Positions 634 to 58,891 of a stretch of 59,130 nt of DNA are shown piece by piece. Position numbers and translations under genes: made by a program. Positions within the stretch are counted from its first letter, which is position 1. Each line of letters starts with the position of its first letter. Source of the stretch: a virus. The notes under the pieces were generated by a model that worked only from the letters and a program-made list of their open reading frames with translations, searched no databases and was not told the origin of the DNA. The DNA is taken from positions 1-59,130 of the IMG/VR virus record IMGVR_UViG_3300024581_000422. One strand, given 5' to 3'.

Positions 634-650
634 AATTATTATTTTGACAG

Positions 651-658
651 TAAAGATA
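651..658 (-). promoter_or_regulatory. Bacteroidota-type -7 box (TATCTTTA on - strand) for the leftward operon
   Basis: + strand taaagata is the reverse complement of TATCTTTA. Its spacing to the ATG matches other TATCTTTG boxes in this genome. Confidence 0.4.
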
Positions 659-675
659 ATAAAAAAATATTAGAT

Positions 676-785
676 ACCCGTAGTGTTTGGGTTGTGTGGT
701 GGCACGCGCGATGACCCCCGATACGGAAACCGATGCTGAGCGATAGGGGGGGGTGCCAAATTCAAATCCGCACTCCGATTTTTTT
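676..785 (+). ncRNA. Candidate structured RNA / attenuator-like element (GC-rich island)
   Basis: GGCAC(701-705)/GTGCC(753-757) and CCCCC(715-719)/GGGGG(746-750) can pair. This competes with the terminator stem GGGGTGC(750-756)/GCACTCC(770-776), which is followed by T7. No family recognised. Confidence 0.3.
750..785 (+). terminator. Intrinsic-terminator-like hairpin plus T-tract
   Basis: 7-bp stem (one G-U), 13-nt loop, then ga + T7 (779-785). Confidence 0.4.
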
Positions 786-797
786 GGCTTTTTGTAC

Positions 798-1018
798 AGG
801 GTATGTGCTGTAGCTGTATGGCTGTAGCTGTATGGCTATAGCTGTTGCTGTTGTGCGCTGTGCTGTTATGCTGTTGCGCTGTTGTTGTCCGTCCATAGCT
901 GTTGCGCTGTCGCTGTTGCTGTATCCTGTATCGTGCATAGCTGTTGTGCTGTGCGCTGTTGCTGTCGTAGCTGTTGTGCATAGCTGTCGTGCTGTATCCT
1001 GTTCCTGTATCCTGTATC
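798..1018. repeat. Degenerate GCTGT/TAGCTGT/GTATCCTGT repeat tract (candidate origin / iterons)
   Basis: About 220 nt made almost only of G, C and T on the + strand. It has reiterated (c)atagctgtt(g), gctgttgc and gtatcctgt words. Confidence 0.7.
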
Positions 1019-1228
1019 AATAGTCTATTCAAAGAGACAAAATGCGCTCTAAATACGCTGTTTACAAGCATTTAAACGCTAACAGAGAGACGATAACCTC
1101 ACAGCGAGCGAGATTAGCCCAAAAAAAATGTCTCTTCAGACTAAACTTTTTTTTACTGAGAATCAATGAGTTATGAAGGCGAAATCTAACTTTAGCTATT
1201 ACCTATTCTTTAGAATCAAGAATTAGAC

Positions 1229-1236
1229 TATATTTG
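1229..1236 (+). promoter_or_regulatory. Candidate rightward early promoter -7 box TATATTTG
   Basis: Exact TAnnTTTG match upstream of the first + strand gene (ATG 1319). Confidence 0.35.
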
Positions 1237-1318
1237 AACACGAAAGGAACATAAAAAACATACAAAAAATTACATAACTTATTGAAAATCAATCATTTAA
1301 CACAAAAAAACAAGTATT

Positions 1319-1618: not shown

Positions 1619-2260
1619 ATGAGACATTTATTAGAAATCGAAAGACAATTCTTAACATCCGACAGAGTTAGCGCGCACGTTAACTTTGGCGAAGTTGATA
1701 ACCTGTTAACCAAAGCTACAGCGAAAAGCAAAGAAGCCTTTGACGTGCAAGTTGAGTTAGCCAAGATAGTGTATAAGGCATCTATATGGCTTAAATCCGC
1801 TGACACGCAAGCGCAATTAGAGGAAGAGGGTATTGTATTCCAAAACTTTGAAGAGTTAGGTAAACGTGTTTTTAACTATGGCAAAGCGCAGGCTTACAAG
1901 ATGAAAAAAGCGGGAGCAATCGCAATCGAGCAAGAAGAGATGGTAAACAGATTCAAGACCATATGCGACGAGCGCGAAGAAGCGGGAGAGACAGCGGGTA
2001 GAGGAATCGATAACCTAATCGCATTTGTATCGAGAGACGGACGTGAAGAGAAAGAGACGAACGAACGTACACTATTCACGTTATCAATCGCGAAAGACGG
2101 ACTGAATGGCGAGAAAGGCATCTCAGCGCGAATTACTATCAATGAGAATGGAATTGTAAATTCTAAAATATCGGGCGAATCAGACAAGCTAACTGACTTT
2201 GAAGCAGTAAAAGTGATGGAGTTAATCGAATTATTCAAAACCAAAGCAATGTCTCTTTAA
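1619..2260 (+). CDS. Hypothetical protein (213 aa)
   Basis: ORF track. Shares the conserved leader with 1319. The stop overlaps a 1-mismatch copy of the genome palindrome (2251..2266). Confidence 0.65.
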   Translation: MRHLLEIERQFLTSDRVSAHVNFGEVDNLLTKATAKSKEAFDVQVELAKIVYKASIWLKSADTQAQLEEEGIVFQNFEELGKRVFNYGKAQAYKMKKAGAIAIEQEEMVNRFKTICDEREEAGETAGRGIDNLIAFVSRDGREEKETNERTLFTLSIAKDGLNGEKGISARITINENGIVNSKISGESDKLTDFEAVKVMELIELFKTKAMSL

Positions 2261-2293: not shown

Positions 2294-3310
2294 ATGAGCA
2301 CATTAATTGAAACAGGGATAACGTTTGATAGATTGTATGACGATGAGTCACGTGGACGAATAATGCCATACAAGCAAGGAGCGAAATCAATTGACCGAAG
2401 TAAGGCGCACAGGGCTGATATTGTTGGGCTGTCAAATTATGACCGAAAGAATGTATTAGAATCAGATGAAGCGCGATTCACGATAGGATTCGAAATCGAG
2501 AAGAATCGTTTGCACAGGAATAGTCTACGTGAATATCCTGTATTTGCAAGATTCGAAACAGATGCATCGTGCGGATTCGAATATGGCGTGAAAGGACATG
2601 AAGCAATCACGCATATCTTACCTTTAATCGGACGTTCGCTATGGCGCACGAAGGTGTACAATATGTTCAATGAAGCGCATACTCTCATAGATGATGCATA
2701 TAGTCCGTCAAACACGCGATGTGGTGGTCATATACATCTTGCGTGCAAAGGGATGGCACCATATGAATTGATGGATAGAGTAAGACGTTTTAGTGGTATA
2801 GTATATGCGCTCTACCGAAAGAGGGTCGGCAATTACTTTTGCCGAGCGAATACGAGAATGTATGATTCAAGCACAAAGTATTCCGTAGCAAAGGTAAATG
2901 ACTATGGCATCGAATTCCGTATCCCAAGCAGAGTTATGTCAGTTAAACAATTGATGCGACGATATGAGTTAATGTACACGATTATGGATTTTGCCTGTAA
3001 TACTCCCGTATATCCCGAATTAAGCACAGCAGTAAAAGCGAAATTCCGTAGTGCTGTGATGCCAATCATTGTATCAATGTGCGAAGGGAACAAAGAGAAA
3101 GCGAAAGCTATCTACAATCTCGGAATGCATTTCCAAGATTACATCAATACAGGTATTGTGAACAAGCATACAATCGGATGGCTTGAGCGCAGATGGTCAA
3201 CAGCAGACTATCGAAAAGGTACCTTCTATGATTTCTATACGAGAGGATTGGATGCGAGATTCGATGAATACGAATGGCTAAACGCACAGCGCGAGATTGG
3301 ATTGCTGTAA
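2294..3310 (+). CDS. Amidoligase (Amidoligase_2 / glutamine-synthetase-like COOH-NH2 ligase family)
   Basis: Ordered motifs: TIGFEIE, ETDASCGFEYG, RCGGHIHL, R..NYFCRAN, GIEFRIPS. Confidence 0.7.
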   Translation: MSTLIETGITFDRLYDDESRGRIMPYKQGAKSIDRSKAHRADIVGLSNYDRKNVLESDEARFTIGFEIEKNRLHRNSLREYPVFARFETDASCGFEYGVKGHEAITHILPLIGRSLWRTKVYNMFNEAHTLIDDAYSPSNTRCGGHIHLACKGMAPYELMDRVRRFSGIVYALYRKRVGNYFCRANTRMYDSSTKYSVAKVNDYGIEFRIPSRVMSVKQLMRRYELMYTIMDFACNTPVYPELSTAVKAKFRSAVMPIIVSMCEGNKEKAKAIYNLGMHFQDYINTGIVNKHTIGWLERRWSTADYRKGTFYDFYTRGLDARFDEYEWLNAQREIGLL

Positions 3311-3421
3311 GATGACAGGACGTGTACAGGGAGAAATCCCTGTGCATTCCGTCCACAGGTGTGTGCCTGTGCTGATGAGTTCAAAAGAACGAAACGGATT
3401 TTTAAACTTAAATTATACACA

Positions 3422-3565
3422 ATGTTAAACGTATTTTTTTTAGTGCTATCAATCATATCTATCGTGATGATAGCTGTACAGGACAAAGACAGCAAGAACA
3501 GAGATGAGATGTTCATCAATCTGATTATCTGTTGGACAATTTTTTTACTAACCTTACCAAGATAG
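3422..3565 (+). CDS. Small two-TM membrane protein (47 aa)
   Basis: Internal ATG of ORF 3359..3565, preceded by the tacacaATG context. Two hydrophobic segments. Confidence 0.45.
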   Translation: MLNVFFLVLSIISIVMIAVQDKDSKNRDEMFINLIICWTIFLLTLPR

Positions 3566-3570
3566 ATTTG

Positions 3571-3658
3571 GATATGTCAAATATTCGTTTTATCTTCGTC
3601 TAAATTATTATTAACAGGGCAGTCTCTTTGAAGAGACAATCCCACAAACACAAACACA
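3571..3658 (+). promoter_or_regulatory. Promoter-hairpin cassette, copy 1
   Basis: tgtcaaatattcgt...tatcttcg...ttaacagggca, then the palindrome gtctctttgaagagac (3622..3637), then cccacaaacacaaacacaATG. Homologous to 5637..5722 and 6746..6835. Confidence 0.55.
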
Positions 3659-3871
3659 ATGAGAAATTTTACAACAAGAATGATTGGCAGAAAAGTAGAA
3701 GTATCTTTTAAACACCCAAAATATGTTACGGCAATATTTCAAGCGCAATTAATGTCTTTTGCTTGTCAAGGTAATTGGGTAACTCAAATGGTTTCTATAC
3801 CTAAAAAAGAATATTCTCTTGAAAAATTACAAGAAGAAGTAGAAAGAGAGTTTAATGTTTATTATTATTAA
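3659..3871 (+). CDS. Hypothetical protein (70 aa)
   Basis: ORF track. Follows cassette copy 1. Confidence 0.6.
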   Translation: MRNFTTRMIGRKVEVSFKHPKYVTAIFQAQLMSFACQGNWVTQMVSIPKKEYSLEKLQEEVEREFNVYYY

Positions 3872-3894
3872 TTAACCAAATAAAATTTAACACA

Positions 3895-4071
3895 ATGAGA
3901 CATCAAGTTAAAATTACAATGGACATCCTAAAGAATTGGGATTGCCTAAAAGACCTAAGCGAAAGCGACAAGGAGTACATCGAATGGCAGTTAAACTTTA
4001 TAGCTGAACAAGCAATAGCTGAATATAGAAAAAAAATTAACGAGTTAGGAAACGAATTATTAAACCAATAA
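3895..4071 (+). CDS. Hypothetical protein (58 aa, below the ORF-track cutoff)
   Basis: Hand-translated: MRHQVKITMDILKNW...GNELLNQ*. Flanked on both sides by the junction motif. Confidence 0.5.
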   Translation: MRHQVKITMDILKNWDCLKDLSESDKEYIEWQLNFIAEQAIAEYRKKINELGNELLNQ

Positions 4072-4082
4072 AATTTAACACA

Positions 4083-4445
4083 ATGAAAGCAAGAGTATTA
4101 AGAAAAATAGATGTAGGATTTACTAACGTAACACTACAGGGGAACGTGTACCGTGTTCACGAGATAGTTGGCACAAGAGTAACAATAAAATTGGAGAGCG
4201 ATAGGTACATAGACTTATCCTTAGACGAAGTAGAGTTATTGATAGATGGCAGACACGTAGCAGTATACCGAAATCAAGGTACAAGGGATGGCAGTTGGAT
4301 AGGATTTAACGAAAGCAAGGGGTATGCATTAGTGTACACTATGCCAAACGGAAGGGAGTTTATAAACCTATGCAAGAATCCATTCAAGTTGGACGAGTAT
4401 ACCACGATTACTAAAGAGAAATTTAAGACATTATTTAACCGATAA
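4083..4445 (+). CDS. Hypothetical protein (120 aa)
   Basis: ORF track, with junction motif upstream. Confidence 0.65.
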   Translation: MKARVLRKIDVGFTNVTLQGNVYRVHEIVGTRVTIKLESDRYIDLSLDEVELLIDGRHVAVYRNQGTRDGSWIGFNESKGYALVYTMPNGREFINLCKNPFKLDEYTTITKEKFKTLFNR

Positions 4446-4458
4446 AATTTATAACACA

Positions 4459-4620
4459 ATGAAAGATTTTAAACAATGGATGGAAACAAATGTAGTTGCC
4501 CGAATGGACAAGTTTGGCAATCAATTTTTCAGCACTCAAGATGCGCTGTATCACAATACCATATATGGTATGGACAGGCTGATTGAGTATTACAAAAAAG
4601 AATTTTTAATTAACCAATAA
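4459..4620 (+). CDS. Hypothetical protein (53 aa, below the ORF-track cutoff)
   Basis: Hand-translated: MKDFKQWMETNVVARMDKFGNQFF...KKEFLINQ*. Junction motif at both ends. Confidence 0.5.
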   Translation: MKDFKQWMETNVVARMDKFGNQFFSTQDALYHNTIYGMDRLIEYYKKEFLINQ

Positions 4621-4632
4621 AATTTAAACACG

Positions 4633-4824
4633 ATGAGAACAATAGAAACAAAAACGGCATTAAGTAAAAAACAAATTGAAGAATTAAAAAACAAGCACGA
4701 AGCAATAAGAAATGTTTTAATAAATAACGATTGTGAGGAACATGGAGATTGCATTATTGATGAAATTTGTGAAGCTATTGGGATATTACCCACGACTGTT
4801 TATTATACAGAAGGTGGGATGTAA
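4633..4824 (+). CDS. Hypothetical protein (63 aa)
   Basis: ORF track, with junction motif upstream. Confidence 0.55.
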   Translation: MRTIETKTALSKKQIEELKNKHEAIRNVLINNDCEEHGDCIIDEICEAIGILPTTVYYTEGGM

Positions 4825-5058
4825 AAAAAATTATTAACCAAATAAAATCAAACACAATTATTAATCAATTAAAATCAAAAAATTATGACACATTTTAAAT
4901 ACACTTTTGCTTTTATGGGTTTCGAGTTTAAAGAAGACAACCATACTTATATCTATATTGGTAGGTCTATTTATTCGGGTAAGTTTATATATCAAACTGA
5001 AATCTAATTTGCCCTAAGGTGCAAATAACATATATCTATAACAATAAAATTAAACACA

Positions 5059-5604
5059 ATGAAAAAGCAAACAAGAAAGGTAGGTGTAGCGGGAGGCTTC
5101 ATCAATCAAATGATGGGTAACAATGCAACAGAGCCAAGAGTTGGCGAAGGTGCTACAATCTTAATGTATAGCGACAGGCACGCATACGAGGTGGTAGATG
5201 TATCCGAGGATGGCAATCAGTGTACACTAAGAAAAATGGACACGATATTTATTGGCTCGGGATATGGCGATGAGAGATACGAGTACAAATCCAATCCGAA
5301 CAATCACACGATAGAACTTGAGTGGAATGCGAAGAAAGGATGTTGGGGAAAGGTTACATACACGATTGAAATCATTCGCTCATTAGCCAAAAAATACTAC
5401 ACCAAGTATGATTTTGGATGGTCAGATATATTAGTGAAGGACTATGGCATTGAGTCATACCAACATCTATACGAAGACCCGAGCGCAGACAATTACTACA
5501 ATCAAATGAAGTTAATTGATGGCTTGACCAAGAGATACAAGAACTTTCATAAGGTGTCAGTCATCTTTGGAATCTCGGAAGAGTATCGTGACCCACATTT
5601 TTAA
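5059..5604 (+). CDS. Hypothetical protein (181 aa)
   Basis: ORF track. Preceded by a 25-nt repeat (5019..5043) that recurs at 5941..5965. Confidence 0.7.
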   Translation: MKKQTRKVGVAGGFINQMMGNNATEPRVGEGATILMYSDRHAYEVVDVSEDGNQCTLRKMDTIFIGSGYGDERYEYKSNPNNHTIELEWNAKKGCWGKVTYTIEIIRSLAKKYYTKYDFGWSDILVKDYGIESYQHLYEDPSADNYYNQMKLIDGLTKRYKNFHKVSVIFGISEEYRDPHF

Positions 5605-5630
5605 CATTTTTTAACATTTTTTAACATTTA
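5601..5630. repeat. Three phased 10-bp tandem repeats (ttaacatttt x3)
   Basis: Read directly. The repeat starts inside the stop codon region of 5059..5604. Confidence 0.85.
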
Positions 5631-5636
5631 AAATTA

Positions 5637-5722
5637 TGTAATGTCGAATATTCGTATTACTTTTGTTTAAAATAATTATTAACAGGGCAAGTCTCGAGGC
5701 TTGCCCACAAAACACAAACACA
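5637..5722 (+). promoter_or_regulatory. Promoter-hairpin cassette, copy 2 (contains an exact TAnnTTTG box TACTTTTG at 5658..5665)
   Basis: tgtcgaatattcgtattacttttgtttaaaataattattaacagggcaag-tctcgagg-cttgccc-acaaaacacaaacacaATG. The 7-bp stem has a different sequence from copies 1 and 3. Confidence 0.6.
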
Positions 5723-5929
5723 ATGAAACAAATATTAAACGATAAAAAAGAAGTAATTTTTGAAGGAGATGCTACAGAAATGACATTAGCATTTAACTAC
5801 CTAACTAAACCATTCTATATACTTGCTGAAAGTATGGGTTTAAGAATGTCTGATGCTTATGAATTAAACAAGAAGTATTGGAATGACAAAACTCGAAATG
5901 TAAAATCATTTGAATTGGTAGATGCTTAA
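5723..5929 (+). CDS. Hypothetical protein (68 aa)
   Basis: Start moved to the ATG behind the conserved cacaATG context. The upstream part of track ORF 5663..5929 is the cassette. Confidence 0.6.
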   Translation: MKQILNDKKEVIFEGDATEMTLAFNYLTKPFYILAESMGLRMSDAYELNKKYWNDKTRNVKSFELVDA

Positions 5930-5981
5930 TGGCATAAAACGTGCAAATAACATATATCTATAACAACAAAAACAAAACACA

Positions 5982-6167
5982 ATGGGAAAAATGAAAGAAC
6001 AATTTATGCTCTTAAGAGAGCAAGACACAAGACACGATGATGATGCGTATCATTACGACCAATGGAGACTACAAGAGCATATGAAAGCAGAACAAGAGTA
6101 TGGCAAATATGTCGTAAGCAGTCTGACTGAGATGTTCAAAAAGATGGGAGGTAGCTATGAGAAGTAG
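5982..6167 (+). CDS. Hypothetical protein (61 aa)
   Basis: ORF track. Exact 25-nt repeat upstream. Confidence 0.55.
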   Translation: MGKMKEQFMLLREQDTRHDDDAYHYDQWRLQEHMKAEQEYGKYVVSSLTEMFKKMGGSYEK

Positions 6168-6444
6168 AAGCGAAGTAGCAGATTACTCTTGGGAGTATGA
6201 CAGAGCTGTGTGCATCTTCAAGGATGGCACATCTATGGAATACAAGTGCGACAAGTATGACCTGTGCGACATCATAGGCAAAGAGATTATGACCGATGTT
6301 GGTGGGGATTGGGTAGCGGACGAGTATGACCTGTCATATGATAGCGATGGATGGATAGCTACGAATGTGGTAGACATCAATCACTACACTCCATACAGAA
6401 AAGAACTTGAGACATTATTCACTAACTTAAAAATGATACAATGA
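6157..6444 (+). CDS. Hypothetical protein (95 aa)
   Basis: ORF track. Overlapping start/stop coupling with its neighbours. Confidence 0.6.
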   Translation: MRSRSEVADYSWEYDRAVCIFKDGTSMEYKCDKYDLCDIIGKEIMTDVGGDWVADEYDLSYDSDGWIATNVVDINHYTPYRKELETLFTNLKMIQ

Positions 6445-6743
6445 TTTACGTAACAAAAGATAATTTCGTATGGTTGGATGTGACCGAGCAGTTAACCAAG
6501 TCGCCAAAGGCGTGGGTAGAAAATGAAATCTACGCAGTACACGACGATGATTCAGAGTCATTACTTGAGTCAATAGAAGAGGTAATAGAGGCTATTAACT
6601 TAGGACTGCGATTGTGTATAGAGGGGGGGTATCTTCCCTCTACACACACGCCACAGAAGACGTGGTGGCATAAGGCACAGAAGGTAGTCAAAGATGGATA
6701 TGTATATGTGCGATGGGCGGATGTAAAAATACCAATGCAATAG
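6441..6743 (+). CDS. Hypothetical protein (100 aa)
   Basis: ORF track. ATGA overlap with the upstream gene. Confidence 0.6.
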   Translation: MIYVTKDNFVWLDVTEQLTKSPKAWVENEIYAVHDDDSESLLESIEEVIEAINLGLRLCIEGGYLPSTHTPQKTWWHKAQKVVKDGYVYVRWADVKIPMQ

Positions 6744-6745
6744 TT

Positions 6746-6835
6746 GGATACGTCAAACGAATGTCGTATATTAGTTTAAAATTAAATTAACTTGGCGAGT
6801 CTCTTCAAAGAGACTTGCTACAAAAATTAAATACA
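6746..6835 (+). promoter_or_regulatory. Promoter-hairpin cassette, copy 3
   Basis: ggatacgtcaaacgaatgtcgtatattagtttaaaattaaattaac, then a 10-bp stem gcgagtctct/agagacttgc (palindrome 6799..6814), then caaaaattaaatacaATG. Confidence 0.5.
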
Positions 6836-7903
6836 ATGTGTGTAATTATAATAAAACAACAAGACAAGATAGTATCATATGATACATTAAAGAATTCAGC
6901 AAGATTAAATCCTCATGGCTTGGGGATTGTGTGGCTTGACACATTTGATGTCACGTATCACAAGTCAAATGAGTATGCGATATTGGATACAGACAGACCA
7001 TACATCGCACACTTTAGATATGCTACGATAGGTGTGGTAAGCAAGGCGAACACGCATCCCTTTGTGTGTGGTAGAAACACGGATGAGATGCTTATGATGA
7101 ATGGTACAATACGAGGGTATGGGACCAAGCTAATGACAGACACAGAAGACTTGGCTATACAATTAGGCAAGATGCCAAGACACGAATGGAAATCATTCCT
7201 ATCTAAATTTGATGCGAGATTCGTATCTGTAAACCTACGGAATAAAACATTCCAAATATACAACAGACATCTGTACACACTCGTGGATGGGGTATGGTAT
7301 TCAAAGACCAATGTACTACAGGAGAATGTGGTTGCGGTGTATGGCACACTAAAGAAAGGATTCAATAACTACAATCACTATCTTACATCATCTACGTATG
7401 TGGGTAGAGGTAAGACACAGGACAGGTATCCGTTAATAGTGAAAGGATTGCCATACCTAATCGAGAAGAAAGGACAGGGGACCAATGTGATTGTAGATGT
7501 ATTCAAGGTATCTGATGGAGTAATGAATAACTTGGATGCGCTTGAAGGTCATCCCAATTGGTACATACGCAAACAGATACCAATCAATATAGGTGGGAAG
7601 ACTATCATAGCTTGGATATATTTCAATCCTTCAGCAGAGGAAGATTGGAATGGACGCAATCACGTGGAGAGCTACGAGCAATACAATCTTTGGAAGTATC
7701 GTGGGTATGAAGATATGATGGGAGAAGAACAAGAAGAAGATAACACGTGCGCTCAGCATGAACTATTCGACACAGAAGAAGATGGCGACGGTGTATGTGT
7801 GTATTGCAGTCACGACCTACAGCACGATGGATTTCAGAACTATTACTGTTCAGCGTGTGATAGTTGGTTTATTGAGAATGATGTAAATGTATTAAAGAGA
7901 TGA
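6836..7903 (+). CDS. Fusion: Ntn (class II) glutamine-amidotransferase-like domain + gamma-glutamyl cyclotransferase (AIG2/GGCT-like) domain + C-terminal zinc ribbon
   Basis: Start reset to the ATG giving Met-Cys (MCVIII...). GATase motifs: NPHGLGIVW, HFRYATIG..NTHPF, MMNGTI. GGCT motifs: VAVYGTLKKG...LDALEGHPNWY. Zinc ribbon: CVYC...CSAC. Confidence 0.7.
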   Translation: MCVIIIKQQDKIVSYDTLKNSARLNPHGLGIVWLDTFDVTYHKSNEYAILDTDRPYIAHFRYATIGVVSKANTHPFVCGRNTDEMLMMNGTIRGYGTKLMTDTEDLAIQLGKMPRHEWKSFLSKFDARFVSVNLRNKTFQIYNRHLYTLVDGVWYSKTNVLQENVVAVYGTLKKGFNNYNHYLTSSTYVGRGKTQDRYPLIVKGLPYLIEKKGQGTNVIVDVFKVSDGVMNNLDALEGHPNWYIRKQIPINIGGKTIIAWIYFNPSAEEDWNGRNHVESYEQYNLWKYRGYEDMMGEEQEEDNTCAQHELFDTEEDGDGVCVYCSHDLQHDGFQNYYCSACDSWFIENDVNVLKR

Positions 7904-8987: not shown

Positions 8988-9335
8988 ATGAAATCAATTT
9001 ATTTACGAGAAGCTAACTCAGAAAAAATGCGGGTACATTCAGAGAAGGGGTACATTAATAGGATGCAACAATTTGCAGACAGGGATGAGCCATTCACATT
9101 CAGTCTCTTTAAAGAGACAGGCAGACTACACTCACAAACCGATTTCCACAATACATATGATGCAGAAGTGCCTAAGGACTGCACCAATGTGATGGTATAC
9201 TTTGGTGGGGCACACATCTATCTACTATCGGATGGCACATGGCAGATTCCTAATGAGGATATGCGTGTGACAACAGACAGGATAGAAGAACTTGAACAGA
9301 TATTATATAACAAAACAAAAAACAATTTAAAATGA
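8988..9335 (+). CDS. Hypothetical protein (115 aa)
   Basis: Internal ATG of ORF 8934..9335 behind an AT-rich leader. Contains an in-frame copy of the palindrome (9103..9118). Confidence 0.6.
   Translation: MKSIYLREANSEKMRVHSEKGYINRMQQFADRDEPFTFSLFKETGRLHSQTDFHNTYDAEVPKDCTNVMVYFGGAHIYLLSDGTWQIPNEDMRVTTDRIEELEQILYNKTKNNLK
9103..9118. repeat. Perfect 16-bp palindrome gtctctttaaagagac (intragenic copy)
   Basis: Read directly. Encodes ..SLFKET... Confidence 0.9.
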
Positions 9336-9619
9336 AAAAGAATGTATTCAATGAATACGTTGACAAGGTAGTTGACCTATTCAATTTAAAAAAAGACATC
9401 CTATTTATCAAGTCAAAACGTAAGGATATAGTGGACGCAAGACATCTACTATACTACCTGTGCTATGAACGTAATATGCAGATACGATACATACAAGAGT
9501 ACATGGCAGACAATGGATACGAGATAGGACACTCGTCTATTATCTACGGAATATCTCAGGTGAAGTATAAGATAGAAGAAGATGCAGACTACCAAACTAT
9601 ATGTAATGAAATCGCATAG
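9332..9619 (+). CDS. DnaA C-terminal (domain IV)-like helix-turn-helix protein (95 aa)
   Basis: KSKRKDIVDARHLLYYLCYE...IQEYMADNGYEIGHSSIIYGISQVKYKIEED matches the R..vv.aR..a.YL...l....I......dHstV..a pattern of DnaA domain IV. Confidence 0.55.
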   Translation: MKKNVFNEYVDKVVDLFNLKKDILFIKSKRKDIVDARHLLYYLCYERNMQIRYIQEYMADNGYEIGHSSIIYGISQVKYKIEEDADYQTICNEIA

Positions 9620-9638
9620 GTATACACTACAGGACATA

Positions 9639-10046
9639 ATGTCTCAGGCAAAACAAGATTCATACACAGCTATATTAGATGGCAATGGATATGAAGCACG
9701 AGCATTGTATGGCTGTAAAATATCAATGGATTTAAAAACATATGAGGTGCAATTACAGAACACTGCACGAGGTGGCAATTGGTATATCCCACTAACAGAA
9801 AAAGAAATAAATATTTTTTTGGAAAATGGTTGGAGAATTGGAATATATACATTATCTTTGTCTAACTATCGTACAAAACTAAATAGCATCGAGTCTTTTA
9901 TTAAGAGAGAGATGAACGGAAAAAAGAATCCAAAGCAGATACGAAAGTTAAAGACATCGAGAGAACGAGTATTAGAAAACTATTCAAATATTATTAAAAA
10001 ATTAAATCAAATTAAAAATGGAAAAGTTAAAGACAGTAAACATTAA
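9639..10046 (+). CDS. Hypothetical protein (135 aa; alternative start 9606)
   Basis: ORF track frame. ATG 9639 follows the stop of 9332..9619. Confidence 0.55.
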   Translation: MSQAKQDSYTAILDGNGYEARALYGCKISMDLKTYEVQLQNTARGGNWYIPLTEKEINIFLENGWRIGIYTLSLSNYRTKLNSIESFIKREMNGKKNPKQIRKLKTSRERVLENYSNIIKKLNQIKNGKVKDSKH

Positions 10047-10539
10047 AGGCAAAGAGTATGTAGAAGTAAACGAGAGACTCATATACTTCAGAAAGCACTA
10101 TCCTAAATACTCTTTAGTATCTCAGGTATTAGACAAGACAGATAACTCTATATGTATCCTTGCGCGTATAGGTGACGAGAGTGGACACGTCATTGCTACA
10201 GGGATAGCAGAAGAGGAGAAGGGTAGCACATTCATTAACAAGACATCTTACGTAGAGAACTGCGAGACAAGTGCATGGGGTAGAGCATTGGCTAACTTCG
10301 GCATCGGACTTGACACATCTGTGGCATCAGCAAACGAGGTGATAAATGCCATATCAAATCAAGATAAACCAAAAGAATACACGAAGGTTAAATTGAATAT
10401 TGGAGACGACAATTGGGGCAAGGTGCTAAGGTATGTGGCTGCTAACAAAAGCAAGGGTCTAAAGGAGATTGTAGAGACACTTGAAAGTAAGTATAGCATC
10501 ACTGCAAACATTAAAAAAGAACTTAAAAAATTAATCTAA
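10018..10539 (+). CDS. Putative single-strand annealing / recombination protein (family unresolved)
   Basis: Sits directly upstream of, and translationally coupled to, a RecB-family exonuclease. Conserved-looking core: VENCETSAWGRALANFGIG..SVASANEV. Confidence 0.4.
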   Translation: MEKLKTVNIKGKEYVEVNERLIYFRKHYPKYSLVSQVLDKTDNSICILARIGDESGHVIATGIAEEEKGSTFINKTSYVENCETSAWGRALANFGIGLDTSVASANEVINAISNQDKPKEYTKVKLNIGDDNWGKVLRYVAANKSKGLKEIVETLESKYSITANIKKELKKLI

Positions 10540-11300
10540 TGGACACGACACACAATGACATCATCCAAAAGCTAAGGGATGATGATGAATACTACAATGG
10601 CATAGGCAGAAAGTATCTGTCTAACTCAGATATAGGTACACTACTGAAGAACCCAAGAGAGTTTGGTAACAGACAGCCCGACACAAAAGAGTTTGCGATG
10701 GGAAGATATTTCCATCAGCTTTTCTTAGAGCCTGAGAAGGCTAAAGAGTGGGACTTCGTAGATGTATCATCACGAAACACGAAGGCATACAAAGATTACC
10801 TTAAGGAGTTAAGCAGTGGATACACGAGACCACGTGACTTTGCATTACTAAAAAAAGAAAAAGAAAATGTAGAGATGTGGGTGAATGCCATGCAATCTAA
10901 TCTTGATTTCTTTGACATGATTAATGCAGAGACCAATCGATATGAGGTGCCATCCGTACAGGAGATATGCGGAGAGATGTGGAAAGGTAAGGCAGATATT
11001 GTAGGCAAGGATTACGTGTATGACCTGAAGACCACAGGGAATCTAAATGAATTCAAGTGGAATGCAAGGAAATATAACTACGATAGTCAGGCATACATAT
11101 ACTCCACACTATTTGGAAAGCCTATGATGTTCTTGGTTGTAGACAAAAGCAGTCATATGCTTGGCAAGTTTGTCGTAAGTGAAGACAGCTTAGAGCGTGG
11201 CAGGTCAAAGGTAGAACGAGCGGTAGAGGTATATCGTAAATTCTTTGGAGACAATCCAACAGAAGACATAAACCAATACTACTATGAAGATGAAATTTAA
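10539..11300 (+). CDS. PD-(D/E)xK exonuclease, RecB/YqaJ-like
   Basis: GKADIVGKDYVYDLKTT (D..D.K core), then YDSQAYIY (QxxxY motif of the RecB nuclease family). Confidence 0.7.
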   Translation: MDTTHNDIIQKLRDDDEYYNGIGRKYLSNSDIGTLLKNPREFGNRQPDTKEFAMGRYFHQLFLEPEKAKEWDFVDVSSRNTKAYKDYLKELSSGYTRPRDFALLKKEKENVEMWVNAMQSNLDFFDMINAETNRYEVPSVQEICGEMWKGKADIVGKDYVYDLKTTGNLNEFKWNARKYNYDSQAYIYSTLFGKPMMFLVVDKSSHMLGKFVVSEDSLERGRSKVERAVEVYRKFFGDNPTEDINQYYYEDEI

Positions 11301-18434: not shown

Positions 18435-18450
18435 TCTCTTTGAAGAGACT
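18433..18450. terminator. 18-bp perfect palindrome agtctctttgaagagact between the two convergent arms (candidate bidirectional terminator/boundary)
   Basis: Overlaps the + strand stop (18432..18434) and the - strand stop (18450..18452). No flanking T-tracts. Confidence 0.5.
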
Positions 18451-21400
18451 TAATCTTCCATCATATCTTCTAAGGTTGGCAGCTTAGGCAAATCATCAGA
18501 CATTTTAGGTAGCTCAGGTAACTCAGGTAGACCCAATGCCTCTCGTTCCTTTTTTGTTAGATTAAGTCCACTGCTCTTCTTTTTCTTAGGTTCCCCTTTA
18601 GGTTTTTCTTTAGTTTTTTCTTTTGTTGCATACCCCGGTCTGTATGACTTAGCAACACCCATTATCTTAAACACATCATCCATCTCCCCCTCGCCTGTAG
18701 CAATATTGAATATGCCTTCAGCAGGGTCCATAGGTGAAGCTGTGCCGATTTCAAGCAATATTTTAGTTCCCTCGTAGGCATCAACGTCTTTGAGTGCCTT
18801 AGCAATTTTTTGTGCGAAATCACTATATGGATTCTTCATGCTGTCTCTTGAAAAGTATTCTCCACGATACGCAGCAATACCACTCTCAAGCCCCGCACCT
18901 ACCAAAGGCAGCCTATATAAAAGTGTAAGTGGATTGCCCGAAGCTAATATCTGTTTAAGTGCGTATTCCCTGTCATCCTTATCTCCAAATAATAATGCCA
19001 TTGAATATGATGCTGTTGTATATAACACATTGGCGACAACTGCATTCAAAAGAAAGTTTTTGTAATCACTATATGTAGCTTTCCCATTAATAATCCTGCC
19101 TGCATATTTCATTGTGTTATTCAACAACAAGAATGATGCACTACCAAACATTGTGACACCTTTAACAAGAGGATTATTTGATTGCTGTAAGCCTATCTTG
19201 TTTACATTCTGCTGTGCCTGCTGTGTGCTATCAAATTGATTGAATCGTCTTAGTGCCTCAGCTTTTGACATACCATTCTTTATGTCCCTATTGAATCGTG
19301 CCTTGTATCCTAATACCCCATTTATATCTCCATATGATGTAAAGAAAGCTTTTGCTCTTGACAGTGCCCTTGCAACAGCTCCCCTTTTACCTTGTGCTTC
19401 TAATACAGGTCTGTATGTTCTTTGCCCTGATTCTATAGCAAGAAGGTCTCCTTTCATTCCTTTCCTATAACGCTCTGCAAATATGCCTGACATATCCATT
19501 GCCTCAGCGACATTCTTTTTTCTATTCGCAAGTACATCAGCATAGTCATACATGAATGTGAAAAAGTCAACTATAGGGGTGCTCTTTCCTTTTCTAAATT
19601 GATAGTCACCCAATGGCAACATAAATGATGTAGTCTGCTTTAATGCCTGTATGGGCTTGAATGCTAATACAATTCCTGAAAATGTATTCTGTGCCCATGT
19701 CAATAGCTTTCCACCTCTTTTTATTTCAGGGGTTGCATTTGGATTGATTCCATAATTTAACATCTGTTGGAATATATTCTTGTATCCTGACATATCTAAA
19801 AGCGTCTGTATATCAGGTGACTTATACACCTGATTCATTGTCTTTACACCCAATGCATATGCCTTGAATCGCTCCATATCTCTGAAGTGTTTCTCTAATG
19901 TCTGAGTAAATGAACGATTCATTACAACGTCACCTACCTTGGCTGTCCTCTCCTTTAGTGCACTCTGCCATTCTGCATTGAACACCTTAAAAAAGTCTCC
20001 TGAAAATAAGTCTTCGCTATTAGTTGCACTCACATCTGTCTGTGTAGGGAAGTAGTTTTCAATCTGACGCAGGCTAATATCATTTGCCTGCATGAATACA
20101 TTATTCACAGATTCAAAGTATGGATTGCTAAGGTAATCTACCGTACTCTCTATGATTGCTATATTATCCTCCCCAATAAACTCTTTTAATTGTAAGATTT
20201 TTGCATCGTCAAGACCTTGATTGTTTAGCTTCTCTCTCTGTGTGTCATTCAATGTAAGTGCATACAAAGCCATCGCTTGGTCTCTATTTAACTCTACACT
20301 GAATGGCTCTTTACTTGTGTCTTCCTGTACAGATATTATACCATCTAATGTAATCACATCATTGCCAAGAGAATACTTCCATTTATTCCACTCTTTATTG
20401 GCAAGCCTATTTGTTATGCCATCAAGAACCTTCTCCTGTGTAAAGTACCCAAGCAGGGCATTATTCTCCATGTCAAGCAATGAGTTATAAAAGAATTCGG
20501 TAAACAACCCATTTGTGTTGCGGTCTAATCGCTGCGTTATAAGGTCAAGGTTAAACATATTCTCCTTCATGAACATAGCCAATGCACCTGTCTTATACTT
20601 TAGGTTCTCTGTTACACGAGCCTTAAAGTCTTTTAATGTCTCTAAGAATCCATCTTTTATGAATGCCTGCATGATAGGCTTACGGTCTCTCTTTAGCTGA
20701 GTATCAGACTTACGTTGACCATCCTCATCATATAGCTCACTGAAGTCTTTACTTATCTGAGTTTTAAACTGCTCTTTAATAGACTCAGAGAGCTGTCGTC
20801 TCATCTTTCGTCTTGTATTAAAATTCTTAATAGATTCAGCCCTTGTATTCTTTAAGTCATCTAATAGCAGCTTCACCTGCTCGAGGTCCATGTTAACAAT
20901 GTCAGCATATGAATCAATTGCATCTCTCAAGTTAAGGATGTCTAATTCTTTTTTAGTAAGCTTCTGTCCACGCTCGTCTTTATCTAATGCAGTATTATAT
21001 TCATTTTCATCTATGCTGTTCATTAGGTTTATGATTCCATCAACATCACCATTCATAGCTAATTTTAGTACACGAGATACTGCATCAAGATATGACTTAC
21101 CTCTCACGTCTACACCACTTGCACTAAGCTTGCCTGACCTTGTCTTCTTTACCTTTACTTTCACGGTGTCCTTAATCTCATTGATTAATTTTTTCTTCAC
21201 CTGCTCTCTGCTATTATCCAACTCATCCAATACCTTTGTTAGTTGCTCAGTATAGTTTTGGTCATTGGTCTCATTAAGAATCTTATTGAGTCTATTAATT
21301 GTTGCAACCCTAAACTCTCTTACCTTTATAGGTGTATCCTTCGTCATCTCAGCAAAAGACTTACGTATCACACGTCTAATCTCCTGTTGGAAGTTTCTTA

Positions 21401-24400
21401 CGTCACGTCTCACCTTATCTTCAGCACGCACCTTCCTGTTAAATTCAAGTGTGCTCTGTCTTAGGCTCTCTGCCTGCTGTGCATCAACCATTGTATCAAT
21501 CTCGGCAAAGATTAAATTAGTTATGCCTTCTACATTTTCAGGAGTAGCCTGAGTAATTAGCTTGTTAATCTTGTTTACACTGCTCTTAGACACATTCTTT
21601 ATGCCTACAAGTTTCTGTCTGATTGCATTCTTTAACTCTGTCTGTGCAGCCTTTATATTGCGTTGACCTCTCTTTATGTCAGCTATACGCTTTCTGATGC
21701 CACCTATCTCCTTAGAAATCTTAGGACCTCTATTTATTTTTAGGTCTCTATCTATGGCATTCTGAAGTTCTAATTGAATTCTCTCTATCTGACTCTTGAA
21801 TAATGGATGTGCCTTTAGAATATCCTGAGCCTTCTGTCTTATTTCAATGAGTGACTTTCCTTGTCGAGCGAATCTCTGCAGCTTATCTTTTACATCATTG
21901 AAAAGTTTTAGTCCTTCTCTTGCACCTTCATTAATATTACCAAACTCATATGGCATCTTATTAAATAGGTCAATATCAATCTCCAATGCACTTTTTATTG
22001 TACTTGCATCGAATCCTCTATTTTGTAGTATCGCCTTGATTGCATCATTTGGATAGCCTAACTCTCTTCCTAATGACACTATAGACTCTGCAGATGCATT
22101 GTCTCCTGTCATCAACTGTAATGTGCTTGACAGTGCCGATACATCCTGACCTTTGAATAGCTCTTTGCCTGATAGCAGGTCTACGGTTACAGCCTGAAGA
22201 AATTCATCCAATGTGATATTTTCAAGCTGCTCTGCAGTATACTCTGATATACCAAAAAGTTTTTGTATATTCTTGTATAGGTCTACAAGCCACTGCTTGA
22301 AGTCTCTGCTTACAGATGCATTCACAAAAGATTCACCTTTGTCTCCTATGGCTGTTGCCAATGCTTCTTCTTTTATGTATGTGTCAATCTCTTCTTCTGT
22401 AGCACCTGCCTCACGCATTTTTGTTATAATACGTTTGTAGTCGCTGCTATTCTTTATCTGATTGATATATGTCTCATCCTGCGAGATAAGCTCCATCCCC
22501 TTGTTGTATAGTTCAGGAGATGCCTGCTTCGCTGTATTAATCCATATGTGTCCGAACTCGTGTATAGGTGTGTTGAAGTTTTCTACTCTCCCATTTAGGT
22601 ATAGCTTGCCTTCATATACCGCACCGTATACAGTTTGGTCTTTAGTTAATAGTTCTTTTACCCATAGATTTTTTGTAAGCTCATCAAACTCTTGTTGTGA
22701 TGTTATGACCTCTACTGTAGGGAACGCCTTCGTTAATCTCTCTAAAAATATTTCCCATGGAGTTGGATTCAGCTCAGATATTTGATACGCTGTAGACGAT
22801 GTGGTCATTGCAGATGTACCTGCGGCAGATATTGCCTCAGCTTTACTGTAGTTAACCATCTTTGCTAATGGTAGCTCAGCTTCTTTTAAAAGATTTTTTA
22901 TTTTATCATTGTTATTTAATTGCAGTGCCTCTTCTAATAGTGGCTTCATTATCTTCCTGTCTCTTGCATTTAGTTTAGCAAATGCATCAGATGCCAATAT
23001 CTCTTCAATAAGTTTCAGCTTATCTGCCTTTTTAACCTTATCAGATTTTGCTTCCTGTATTTTTTCAAACACTTCAGTCTCAGCCTTATTAGCATTGTAT
23101 TTTACTTTACCTGACCTCTTTTTTTCTAAGCCAACAGCTCGCTCTTGTAGCTGATTAGAATAGTAATCTGTAACCCTATAGAATGGTGCAGTATCTTCCA
23201 TCAAGGCGACAGCTCTTCCTCGAATATAAAATGGGTAATTTGGATGTATCTGCATTCCTTCAGCTTGCGCCTCTTCTTCTGAAATTTTTGCCGATGCTAT
23301 TATATCATTGATTCCCTTGTTATATTCTTTTTGTGTTATCTCCTTTTTCTTTAGTCTCTCATCGAGTTGTCTTTTTAACTCGCTTACCTTTACACCATCT
23401 TTGTTAGTAATCTCAACCACCATAGTGAGTGCACCCGTCTTCAAGTCTTTGGTAAAGCCTTCAGATGTCTCATCTATAAGTACGTCTCTTGCTATGCCAA
23501 GAGAAATCAACTCTTGAGACAGCTTGATGTCAGTCTTTACATCTAATGTCTCAGGCAATATAAGCTCCATGACTGCAGCCCTTGTCTTTACACCTTCATT
23601 CTCTTGTAATGCCTTGAAAAATGACATTATATCAGTAGCCCCATCCAAGTGTTTCTTAGCCTTCTTTACGTCTGTTAATTTAGACTCCTTAACTTTATCC
23701 TTGATTAGATTAAATATCTTATCCTTTTGATTGTCGGGAATTTTTTCATTCACCATCTCTGCTATAATAATATTAGACATGATGCCACCATTCCCCATGT
23801 TGTACACAACGGAATAGTCTGCATCCATTGCCCCTTTTATTATTTTTGTTGCTGCCACATCTTTTATCGATGCCCATGCAACCTTGCCAAATAGTCCCTC
23901 CATCAATGGGAAAAAGTTTCCTCCCATCTTTACGTATGGATTGGTATCAGGGTTGTGCGGTTTTGTGGGGTCTTTAAGTTCTACCTTTAGCTTGTCAGCC
24001 ATCAACAGGTTTATCTTTTTCCCCACTAACTCTTTTAGTTTAAACCTCTTTATCTTTTCTACAAGTGACAGGTTTTCTTCTACTGTTATAGGTGTAGGCT
24101 CAACAGTTGGCTCTTCTACTACAACTGTCTCTCCTGAACTTTCTTGTTTGTCTAACTCGCTAAATAGTTTCTTTGCCTCTTTTGTCTTCTTGTCTATTAC
24201 ATTGTCTTCTGTCTTACCTTCAGATAGTTGGAACTGTACTTCATCGCTGCCAAGACGTTCTTCTAAGTCAGCTTCTAAGCTTGCTACATCTTGCTTCAAT
24301 ATCTCAAGCTCGGACACTCTTGTCTTGTGTTTTTCTGCTACTCTCTCTTGGAATTTTGTTAGCTTCTTGCCTGCAATATTCTTGTCTGCTATTGCTGAGA

Positions 24401-32307: not shown

Positions 32308-33147
32308 TTATGGGAAAGATTTCATTATCTCAGATTCAACAGAAAACATTTCACTCTGATTAATCGCCTTCGTAGGGTCAAGTGTCAACACAAACTTACA
32401 GTAGTGTCCTAATAGACCATGTGACTCTGCTATAGGATTCTTAATATACAAGAAATATGCGTCCTGCAGTGGTATAGGATTAACAGCAGGAGGAACAAAT
32501 GGATTCCCCTGTTGGTCTACAGATGAGTTAATAACCAACTGATTGATACCATTGCGTTTGTCTACGTTTTTCTGAATAATCTGACCTGCAAATATAGGTG
32601 TCTCATATGGTGGCACTGCATAGTATAGATAGTCTCCAACGCTTACAATGCTTCCTATATCAACAGATAGTGCAAAGTCAATCTCGTATGCTGTAGCTAT
32701 GCCTCCAACTGCTGTACTACGAGCGATGCCATTAAGTGAGCGCAACTCAAATTCACTTTCATCTACACTTGCACCTGTCGGTCCATTGTTACGAATGAAT
32801 GCAAACCACGCATCTTCTTTTTTCTCGAACCAATCGTCATCAATCAGTCCTGTGGTCTGTATGTCTGTTGTTAGGATAGCATCCCAAGAGTCGTCACCCT
32901 CCAAGTTTAATGTCTTGAACTGCTTGGTCTCTAATGGGCTCTGATTAAATATACTTGTTATCTGAGACTCATAGGTGGTCCCATAGAACGTGTTGTAGTT
33001 ATTGTTGGTGTTATGCCTATAAAGGTTGCCACCCTTAAACGTATAAAAAAATTGATTCATCCCTATCATCCAATCAGGGAAAAAAGAATAGAATGATGGG
33101 AACCCCTGTGAGGTATTGCTGTATGTTAATGTATAATTCTGACTCAT
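32308..33147 (-). CDS. Putative tail/structural protein (279 aa)
   Basis: ORF track, in the structural operon. Confidence 0.6.
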   Translation of the reverse strand: MSQNYTLTYSNTSQGFPSFYSFFPDWMIGMNQFFYTFKGGNLYRHNTNNNYNTFYGTTYESQITSIFNQSPLETKQFKTLNLEGDDSWDAILTTDIQTTGLIDDDWFEKKEDAWFAFIRNNGPTGASVDESEFELRSLNGIARSTAVGGIATAYEIDFALSVDIGSIVSVGDYLYYAVPPYETPIFAGQIIQKNVDKRNGINQLVINSSVDQQGNPFVPPAVNPIPLQDAYFLYIKNPIAESHGLLGHYCKFVLTLDPTKAINQSEMFSVESEIMKSFP

Positions 33148-58860: not shown

Positions 58861-58883
58861 ATGTATTAAATTTAATTGTACCA

Positions 58884-58891
58884 CAAAGGTA
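58884..58891 (-). promoter_or_regulatory. -7 box TACCTTTG (- strand), 24 nt before the groEL ATG
   Basis: Exact TAnnTTTG match, inside the inverted repeat tgtacc-acaaa-ggtaca (58885..58901). Confidence 0.45.

Follow-up and report, generated by a model that had tools for sequence, protein, structure and literature searches.

What might a phage do with an amidoligase and, a few genes further on, a glutaminase-type domain fused to a cyclotransferase? This question is raised by two genes on the plus strand of the viral record IMGVR_UViG_3300024581_000422 from IMG/VR; the window below means the whole analysed stretch of this record, 59,130 nucleotides (nt) long. The first open reading frame (ORF), ORF-A (2294..3310, 338 amino acids, aa), encodes a divergent amidoligase of the glutamine synthetase (GS) fold. 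The second, ORF-B (6836..7903, 355 aa), encodes a fusion of an N-terminal nucleophile (Ntn) domain of the class II glutamine amidotransferase (GAT-II) type, a gamma-glutamylamine cyclotransferase (GGACT) domain and a zinc ribbon. The identity of these parts, GS-fold ligase, Ntn domain, GGACT domain and zinc ribbon, is hardly in doubt. The function that we favour, tentatively, is a cycle in which a gamma-glutamyl amide would be made on an amine by ORF-A and later cleaved by ORF-B. Both reading frames had been proposed as a gamma-glutamyl-type modification system in an initial annotation made from the sequence alone; the frames, their strand and all motifs quoted there were recovered.

The ligase and the fusion protein

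The motifs of ORF-A read GFEIEK, FETDASCGFE, CGGHIHL, RVGNYFC and EFRIP. Invariant positions in the alignment of 42 homologues are G65, E67, E69 and K70, E88, D90 and S92, E103, C143 to H146, R177, N180 and C183, E207 and R209, and the family-wide ladder is GFExEK, FExDxSC, EA, CGGH, R..N..C, EFR. The ordered ladder of GS-type ligands, E-x-E, E/D, E, H, R, E-x-R, is satisfied by these invariant residues.

No match to ORF-A was found by hmmscan in Pfam, PHROGs or NCBIfam, and a profile of the 42 homologues retrieved only noise from PDB sequences. The gathering score of Pfam Amidoligase_2 (PF12224) was not reached, two of the 42 homologues matching it only at E 0.016. The AlphaFold2 model of ORF-A, built on the homologue alignment, has pLDDT 91 and pTM 0.91. 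All 50 best Foldseek matches of this model in the PDB are GS, gamma-glutamylmethylamide synthetase (GmaS) or YbdK/GCS2, with E values from 4e-5 and probability about 1, but with TM scores of only about 0.3. Among the viral models of BFVD, four members of the same family rank first, and nearly all named matches after them are phage 'amidoligases' (E 7e-9 to 1e-4, TM 0.35-0.48), including those of LAh_9, phage tf, Cellulophaga phage phi14:2 and crAss-like viruses.

A comparison profile was constructed from eight canonical phage Amidoligase_2 proteins taken from GenBank records. In hhalign ORF-A aligns with this profile over 166 columns (E 8.8e-5, probability 60%), and the motifs are in register: GFEIE/GIEIE, DxS/DGS, RCGGHIH/RCSxHVH, R..N.YC/R..N.FC, KY, EFR. 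The group of PF14395, COOH-NH2 ligase type 2, gave no alignment (E 0.012, probability 4%). Since the modelled fold matches GS-type enzymes and the profile alignment keeps the motifs in register, ORF-A is best regarded as a sister, though a divergent one, of Pfam Amidoligase_2 among the GS-fold carboxylate-amine ligases, and it is a predicted ATP-dependent carboxylate-amine ligase.

The family of ORF-A comprises 329 clusters at 90% identity, and 804 clusters or representatives were counted at 50% identity, none of them with a Pfam domain. Many homologues are long (500-850 aa; proteins P0243-P0245, P0250, P0253, P0292 and P0384, and the ORF at 9314-11038 of the related locus L001) and have N-terminal extensions of 130-630 residues, which would be additional domains of this ligase family. 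A Pfam scan of ten long, distant relatives, extensions included, returned nothing.

ORF-B begins with Met-Cys. An upstream TTG start at 6815 was given by the ORF lister; the start at 6836 is preferred because 30 of 32 homologues begin with Met-Cys. The motifs are NPHGLG, HFRYAT..NTHPF, MMNGT, YGTLKKG, LEGHPNWY and CVYC..CSAC. Residues 1-160 (6836..7315) form the Ntn domain with Cys2 as the predicted nucleophile, and in the alignment of the 32 homologues M1, C2, R61, N72, H74, P75, F76, N89, G90 and D102 are invariant here. Residues 166-270 (7331..7645) form the GGACT/AIG2-like gamma-glutamyl(amine) cyclotransferase domain, where Y169 to L172 and E237, the predicted catalytic Glu, are invariant. 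An acidic, variable, disordered linker follows (7646..7795; pLDDT below 50 at residues 287-316), and the protein ends with a tethered CxxC-x13-CxxC zinc ribbon (7796..7903) with invariant C321, C324, C338, C341, D327, D331 and W344. The AlphaFold2 model (pLDDT 84) has two confident domains, the disordered segment 287-316 and a small ordered C-terminal ribbon.

The cyclotransferase half is the easiest to recognise. Pfam GGACT (PF06094) covers residues 166-270 with E 1.3e-21 and 77.8 bits against a cutoff of 22.8. A profile search of the PDB retrieves GGACT at E 6e-14, with LEGHP paired to the FE(D/S)CP segment that holds the catalytic Glu, and Foldseek retrieves human and mouse GGACT (1vkb, 3jud) with TM 0.74 and rmsd 1.9 A. 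The mammalian enzyme (PDB 3JUB, 3JUC, 1VKB) shares with this domain the fold, the YGTLK(R/K)G motif and the catalytic Glu. However, it is a stand-alone protein of 150 aa, whereas its counterpart in ORF-B is fused behind an Ntn glutaminase domain.

For the Ntn half, matches around residues 50-99 stay below the Pfam gathering scores (GATase_6, 22.4 bits against 27; GATase_4, 18.4 against 23), and many close homologues carry precomputed PF13230 together with PF06094. Foldseek also retrieves the glutaminase domain of GFAT-1/GlmS. With a glutaminase-domain sequence of E. coli GlmS that was entered by hand, hhalign gave a probability of 83% and E 9.4e-6, pairing IAHFRYAT with IAHTRWAT (R61 with R73), NTHPF with NAHPH, and MNGTI with HNGII (N89-G90 with N98-G99); by inspection of the shared TDTE motif, D102 corresponds to GlmS D123. 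Thus the N-terminal Cys, the Arg of HxRxAT, NxHP, the N-G oxyanion hole and the TDTE Asp are common to ORF-B, GlmS/GFAT and stand-alone GATase_4 proteins (YafJ, EgtC). The invariant residues hold glutamine at its alpha-carboxyl and alpha-amino groups, both of them free, and therefore this domain should bind glutamine or another gamma-glutamyl amide. Unlike GlmS/GFAT, the Ntn domain of ORF-B has only about 160 residues and no sugar-isomerase or other acceptor domain: the place of a fused acceptor or synthase for ammonia is taken by GGACT and then the zinc ribbon. Judged by these alignments, both catalytic domains keep their catalytic residues intact.

The zinc ribbon is the mobile part of the protein. 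The linker before it varies in length and sequence in the alignment and is replaced by a Gly/Tyr-rich segment in L001. In locus L020 (4922-6040) the ribbon lies between the GATase and GGACT domains, and it is missing from the homologue in phage C75C1, which is considered below. A targeting role of the ribbon is plausible because it is held on a disordered tether and its position shifts between homologues. Another related viral contig, L033, also has the ribbon between GATase and GGACT instead of at the C-terminus. One of the phage amidoligase models that match ORF-A, BFVD entry A0A6J7X2B6, is titled 'LIM domain containing protein', a name from which it seems that either enzyme of the system can acquire a zinc module. 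The fusion as a whole is abundant, with more than 830 clusters at 90% identity.

All three domain assignments of the initial annotation are thus upheld by Foldseek, profile comparison and Pfam GGACT. Its expectation of what hmmscan would return was borne out for AIG2/GGACT; Amidoligase_2 was missed in ORF-A, and GATase stayed below the gathering scores. The models that it called for place the folds with GS-type enzymes, GlmS/GFAT and GGACT, and the residues that it singled out as catalytic, Cys2, the GS-type acidic/His/Arg ladder and the GGACT Glu, are conserved in the homologue alignments.

Linkage of the two genes and related phage modules

Loci with ORF-A were retrieved from 80 viral contigs, to which the GenBank relative MW202828 was added. 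The association supposed in the initial annotation holds in both directions. ORF-A is followed by the fusion on the same strand in all 67 loci with at least about 3.5 kb of downstream sequence, and the ORF-A loci without the fusion all end within 2.7 kb. Conversely, ORF-B is preceded by ORF-A in 73 of the 73 loci with enough upstream sequence. The two genes are 97 to 4903 bp apart (median 1837 bp). In the window the gap is occupied by a variable block of about ten small ORFs (3401..6835, plus strand), which lies outside the system: the ORFs within 3359..6444 have homologues in none of the 81 related loci, and the ORF at 6441..6743 is the sole recurrent spacer ORF, found in 14 loci. Thus the two genes are inherited as a pair though the genes between them turn over.

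The related contigs belong to one lineage, their primases being 70-88% identical, and therefore co-occurrence alone could reflect shared ancestry. The argument for a functional link comes from two independent observations outside this lineage. Firstly, the early operon of phage C75C1 (OQ984151.1) starts with a canonical Amidoligase_2 (Pfam E 3.5e-30), and the same fusion follows downstream. The two-gene layout, the gene order and the position at the start of the early/replication operon are those of the window, and the fusion is 45% identical to ORF-B over residues 1-263. However, the C75C1 ligase does not belong to the family of ORF-A, its fusion has no zinc ribbon, and its backbone is different (39 kb, DnaB helicase, Erf). 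Secondly, in unrelated cultured phages genes of Amidoligase_2, GAT-II, GGCT, ATP-grasp and PF14395 ligase are clustered just upstream of the primase. Such clusters are carried by phiEco32, UFV-P2 (LUZ24-like), LAh_9, BUCT695 and several Zobellviridae, whereas MEP401 has an amidoligase and GAT-II only, without GGCT.

These observations bear on the possibility that the two genes are independent auxiliary metabolic genes, ORF-B scavenging host gamma-glutamyl compounds for glutamate, 5-oxoproline or amines, and ORF-A being unrelated to it. PHROGs does place the GGCT family under moron and auxiliary metabolic genes, and as much as 4.9 kb of unrelated ORFs may separate ORF-A from ORF-B. However, co-occurrence is 100% both ways, and the pairing is seen again in C75C1, where the amidoligase is another one, and in the unrelated phage clusters. 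We consider independence of the two genes improbable.

The clusters of phiEco32, LUZ24-like phages (UFV-P2, PaP3), Lahexavirus and Zobellviridae share with the window an amidoligase, a class II glutaminase and an AIG2/GGCT protein encoded on the early strand, a few kb upstream of the primase, which in the window lies at 11951, downstream of both enzyme genes. A tblastn search with the GGACT half of ORF-B recovers the GGCT genes of these phages, and the model of ORF-A matches the models of their amidoligases. The differences are as follows. The phiEco32/LUZ24-type module includes ATP-grasp and PF14395 ligase genes, whereas neither a RimK-like ATP-grasp nor PF14395 was found among the window ORFs scanned. 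The glutaminase of the window has 160 aa and is fused to GGACT and the zinc ribbon, whereas the GAT-II proteins of these phages are separate and have 380-850 aa. Finally, the amidoligase of the window is too divergent for the Pfam model, and its two genes are not adjacent, unlike those of the cluster. On these comparisons the locus appears to be a minimal two-gene form of the phiEco32/LUZ24-type module of amidoligase, GAT-II, ATP-grasp and GGCT, a placement that the initial annotation had not made.

The phage association of amidoligase, GAT-II and GGCT was, according to later papers, predicted by Iyer et al. (2009), and the mention in the initial annotation of such a study from the Aravind group agrees with the citations in those papers. 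In the same papers, the idea of 'peptidoglycan modification / superinfection exclusion' is attributed to Iyer et al. (2009) as well, and a cell-wall prediction is restated. A literature search for biochemistry of the module returned predictions and annotations only.

The cell-wall prediction fits the main rival of the gamma-glutamyl cycle, a split glutamine-dependent amidotransferase. In such an enzyme the Ntn domain of ORF-B would hydrolyse glutamine, and the ammonia would pass to ORF-A, which would activate a carboxylate with ATP and convert it into an amide, e.g. the carboxyl of D-Glu or of diaminopimelate in the peptidoglycan stem peptide, GGACT being an accessory that clears a by-product. 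Amidoligase and GAT-II are the core of the module across phage families, some phages carrying just these two, and ORF-B retains the Gln-binding Arg, the Asn-Gly oxyanion hole and the Asp. However, GS-fold ligases take free ammonia directly, and we know of no GS-fold enzyme with a GAT-II subunit. Further, GAT-II glutaminases are normally fused to their own acceptor, whereas here the partner is a cyclotransferase that would have no role, and the strict fusion of GGACT to the glutaminase is left unexplained. We consider split amidation a serious alternative, but a doubtful one. Writing and erasing a mark, as proposed in the initial annotation, is accordingly one of two or more schemes that make chemical sense.

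Candidate functions of the pair

The gamma-glutamyl scheme is suggested by the best-characterised relatives of the three modules, all of which work on the gamma-carboxyl or the gamma-amide of Glu or Gln: GS, GmaS and YbdK for the ligase, GlmS/GFAT for the Ntn domain, and GGACT. It is also the most economical scheme, because either half of the fusion would free the amine of a gamma-glutamyl amide. Pfam GATase_4, a family that includes the gamma-glutamyl amide hydrolase EgtC, is matched by homologues of the Ntn domain of ORF-B, and the absence of an acceptor or synthase domain of the kind usual in ammonia-channelling GAT-II enzymes is in favour of the scheme. Glutamate would be joined by ORF-A, through the gamma-carboxyl, to an amine, which could belong to a small molecule or to a precursor of the cell envelope. 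Later the fusion would take the gamma-glutamyl group off again, either as glutamate, by the Ntn domain, or irreversibly as 5-oxoproline, by the GGACT domain. In early infection gamma-glutamylation would then serve as a transient handle, carrier or protecting group, and the zinc ribbon would probably dock the fusion onto a partner.

Pairs of a ligase and a gamma-glutamyl remover are known: EgtA and EgtC in ergothioneine synthesis, PuuA and PuuD, GmaS and the GAT-II-like subunit of N-methylglutamate (NMG) synthase, and the ligase BtrJ and cyclotransferase BtrG in butirosin synthesis. GmaS is also among the best structural matches of ORF-A. The likeness is one of logic only. Further, the two kinds of remover, Ntn/GATase-type and GGCT-type, are unfused in these systems, whereas in the window protein they are joined in one chain.

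Several observations weigh against the gamma-glutamyl scheme. Support for members of the module in the papers found consists of predictions only, and sequence does not reveal which substrates the ligase accepts. If one and the same bond is made and broken, some step must come in between, and no conserved gene for such a step was found in the related loci, where the only conserved ORF nearby encodes a protein of 213 aa. The co-occurrence within the lineage partly reflects shared ancestry. Finally, systems of the MEP401 type have no GGCT, and therefore the universal core fits a GAT-II ammonia donor equally well.

A more far-reaching version of the gamma-glutamyl scheme can be imagined, in which the pair is a self-sufficient system that installs an amino-acid-derived group on a macromolecule (phage or host DNA, protein, or a lipid-linked peptidoglycan precursor) and unmasks it after maturation, the zinc ribbon providing the targeting. 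We regard it as rather unlikely. If true, the phage amidoligase/GAT-II/GGCT module as a whole would at last have a function, and the pair, in an abundant environmental crAss-like lineage, would be the simplest form of it and the easiest to study.

Two kinds of macromolecular target can be considered separately. One possibility is that ORF-A gamma-glutamylates a protein of host or phage, or ligates an amino acid to its lysines or carboxylates in some other way, that ORF-B reverses or trims the modification, and that the ribbon brings ORF-B to the target. The GS-fold ligases include the protein ligase PafA, the tethered ribbon with its shifting position resembles a recruitment module, and both genes are in the early operon. 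However, GGACT enzymes have been characterised on free gamma-glutamyl amines, e.g. free epsilon-(gamma-glutamyl)-lysine, and no conserved candidate substrate gene was found in the related loci. A peptide tag similar to Pup fits poorly, because both domains of ORF-B need a glutamyl group with free alpha-amino and alpha-carboxyl. We give protein modification a low probability.

The other target is DNA, which the initial annotation had listed as a possible substrate: an amino-acid-derived group would be built or trimmed on a base of the phage DNA or on a nucleotide. Amidoligase and amidotransferase genes were reported beside thymidine hypermodification genes in viral contigs (Lee et al. 2021), the module always adjoins replication genes, and a zinc ribbon could bind nucleic acid. 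However, the window provides no support for DNA as the target. Genes for 5-hmdU DNA kinase, aGPT-Pplase/AADT, dUMP hydroxymethylase, TET/JBP or deazaguanine synthesis were not observed among the window ORFs scanned, and no phage DNA polymerase was recognisable among them. A match to the amino acid:DNA transferase ADDT was obtained for one of the 42 homologues of ORF-A at E 0.088, which is the level of noise, and was rejected. Modification of DNA is thus improbable, as improbable as that of proteins.

As a kind, the system is already known from comparative genomics and genome annotations. The module is present in hundreds of cultured phages (LUZ24-like, phiEco32-like, Zobellviridae, Aeromonas phages), 306 phage records hold an Amidoligase_2 gene, and the annotation has been by prediction since 2009. 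The new elements are the minimal two-gene architecture, the GATase-GGACT-zinc-ribbon fusion as a widespread protein, the amidoligase family outside current profile libraries, and the abundance of the system in an environmental crAss-like lineage. Since the module is reduced here to two proteins, it tells experimenters which activities are indispensable, and in this reduced lineage the glutaminase and the cyclotransferase would act as one unit. Because Pfam, PHROGs and NCBIfam do not detect the ligase family, current annotation pipelines overlook one half of the system. In marine and freshwater viromes this lineage is common, and the product, whatever its identity, would be made often in nature.

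Hammerhead ribozymes, neighbouring genes and the phage

A candidate type III hammerhead ribozyme was found on the plus strand at 3346..3400, 36 nt after the stop codon of ORF-A, with predicted cleavage after C3353. It falls inside the coordinates of the initial annotation, which had not noted it. With Rfam RF00008 it scores 42.7 bits (E 5.5e-6 over the window). The gathering score is 48.5, which this copy does not reach but the copy of one relative does, with 49.2 bits. All core bases are present (CUGAUGA, GAAA and a UH cleavage site), and stems I and II are closed. The core pattern has one match in the window and none in 100 shuffles.

The hammerhead core was observed in 124 fetched related loci, always on the gene strand and in up to four copies per locus (e.g. 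L042:10903-10958, L055:10897-10951 and L055:14537-14591). The three-stem copies that could be parsed number 191, of which 111 are distinct. Where both enzyme genes were located in a locus, 87 copies lie within 200 nt after the homologue of ORF-A, 56 elsewhere between the two genes, and 26 downstream of ORF-B; 22 of these 26 are 46-72 nt past the end of the ORF-B match. The 93 distinct copies of 55 nt show strong covariation in stems I-III. Pairing reaches 99.5% in stem I and 99.7% in stem II, where six of seven and three of four pairs covary, respectively, and the stems contain 414 double-sided changes against 127 in shuffles. Hammerheads flanking genes in phage and prophage transcripts, including one in phage PaP3, were described by Perreault et al. 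(2011), and the copies found here are new members of this type. As judged by their placement, cleavage probably occurs directly behind each of the enzyme genes and divides the early mRNA into pieces of about the size of a gene. Speculatively, the variable ORF cassettes could also recombine at these 55-nt repeats.

The conserved 213-aa ORF mentioned above (1619..2260, plus strand) lies directly 5' of the amidoligase gene, and a syntenic homologue occupies the same position in 62 of the 81 related loci. It has no match in Pfam and no profile match in the PDB. As a candidate third component it was compared with the ORF of about 200 aa before the amidoligase in phiEco32-type clusters, and no homology was found; the N-terminal extensions of the long homologues of ORF-A are not homologous to it either. 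Its conserved segment KVFGWQKSFFYKxVKAGKL resembles a helix-turn-helix. The protein may act as a regulator, or it may belong to the system as a third component.

The plus-strand operon begins after a divergent intergenic region (approximately 634..1318) and continues into replication genes. The window encodes a primase of the BT4734/VirE type, an SNF2 helicase, DnaA-like HTH proteins and PD-(D/E)XK nucleases, as well as GroEL, the large terminase and the portal protein. On the minus strand there are an ORF of 3459 aa without a Pfam match (18450-28829), a protein with the C-terminal domain of the crAss muzzle (32308-33147; PF25729, E 5e-20) and the phage GroEL gene (57250-58884). Full-length homologues of the fusion in genome bins are confined to phage-like contigs in metagenome-assembled genomes (MAGs) of Flavobacteriaceae, Cytophagales and Bacteroidetes. 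The giant ORF, the muzzle domain, GroEL and the Bacteroidota bins point to a small crAss-like phage of Bacteroidota, from a lineage with genomes of about 60 kb. A megablast search of the region against GenBank phages gave zero matches.

The divergent intergenic region (634-1318), which separates the leftward and rightward gene blocks, contains a degenerate tandem array rich in CTGT (801-1018), with periods of 14 and about 43 nt and Tandem Repeats Finder (TRF) scores up to 152. This array may serve as an origin, as an iteron region or in regulation, and the ORFs called across it are probably spurious rather than genes. A tRNA scan of the GC-rich stretch 670-790 found none. The near-identical motif ACACAAAAAAA(AA)CAAGTATTATG occurs at 1296-1321 and 1596-1621, ending at the start codons of the ORFs that begin at 1319 and 1619. 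An early promoter or leader element of the phage is one possible role of this motif, and a translation start context of the Bacteroidota type is another.

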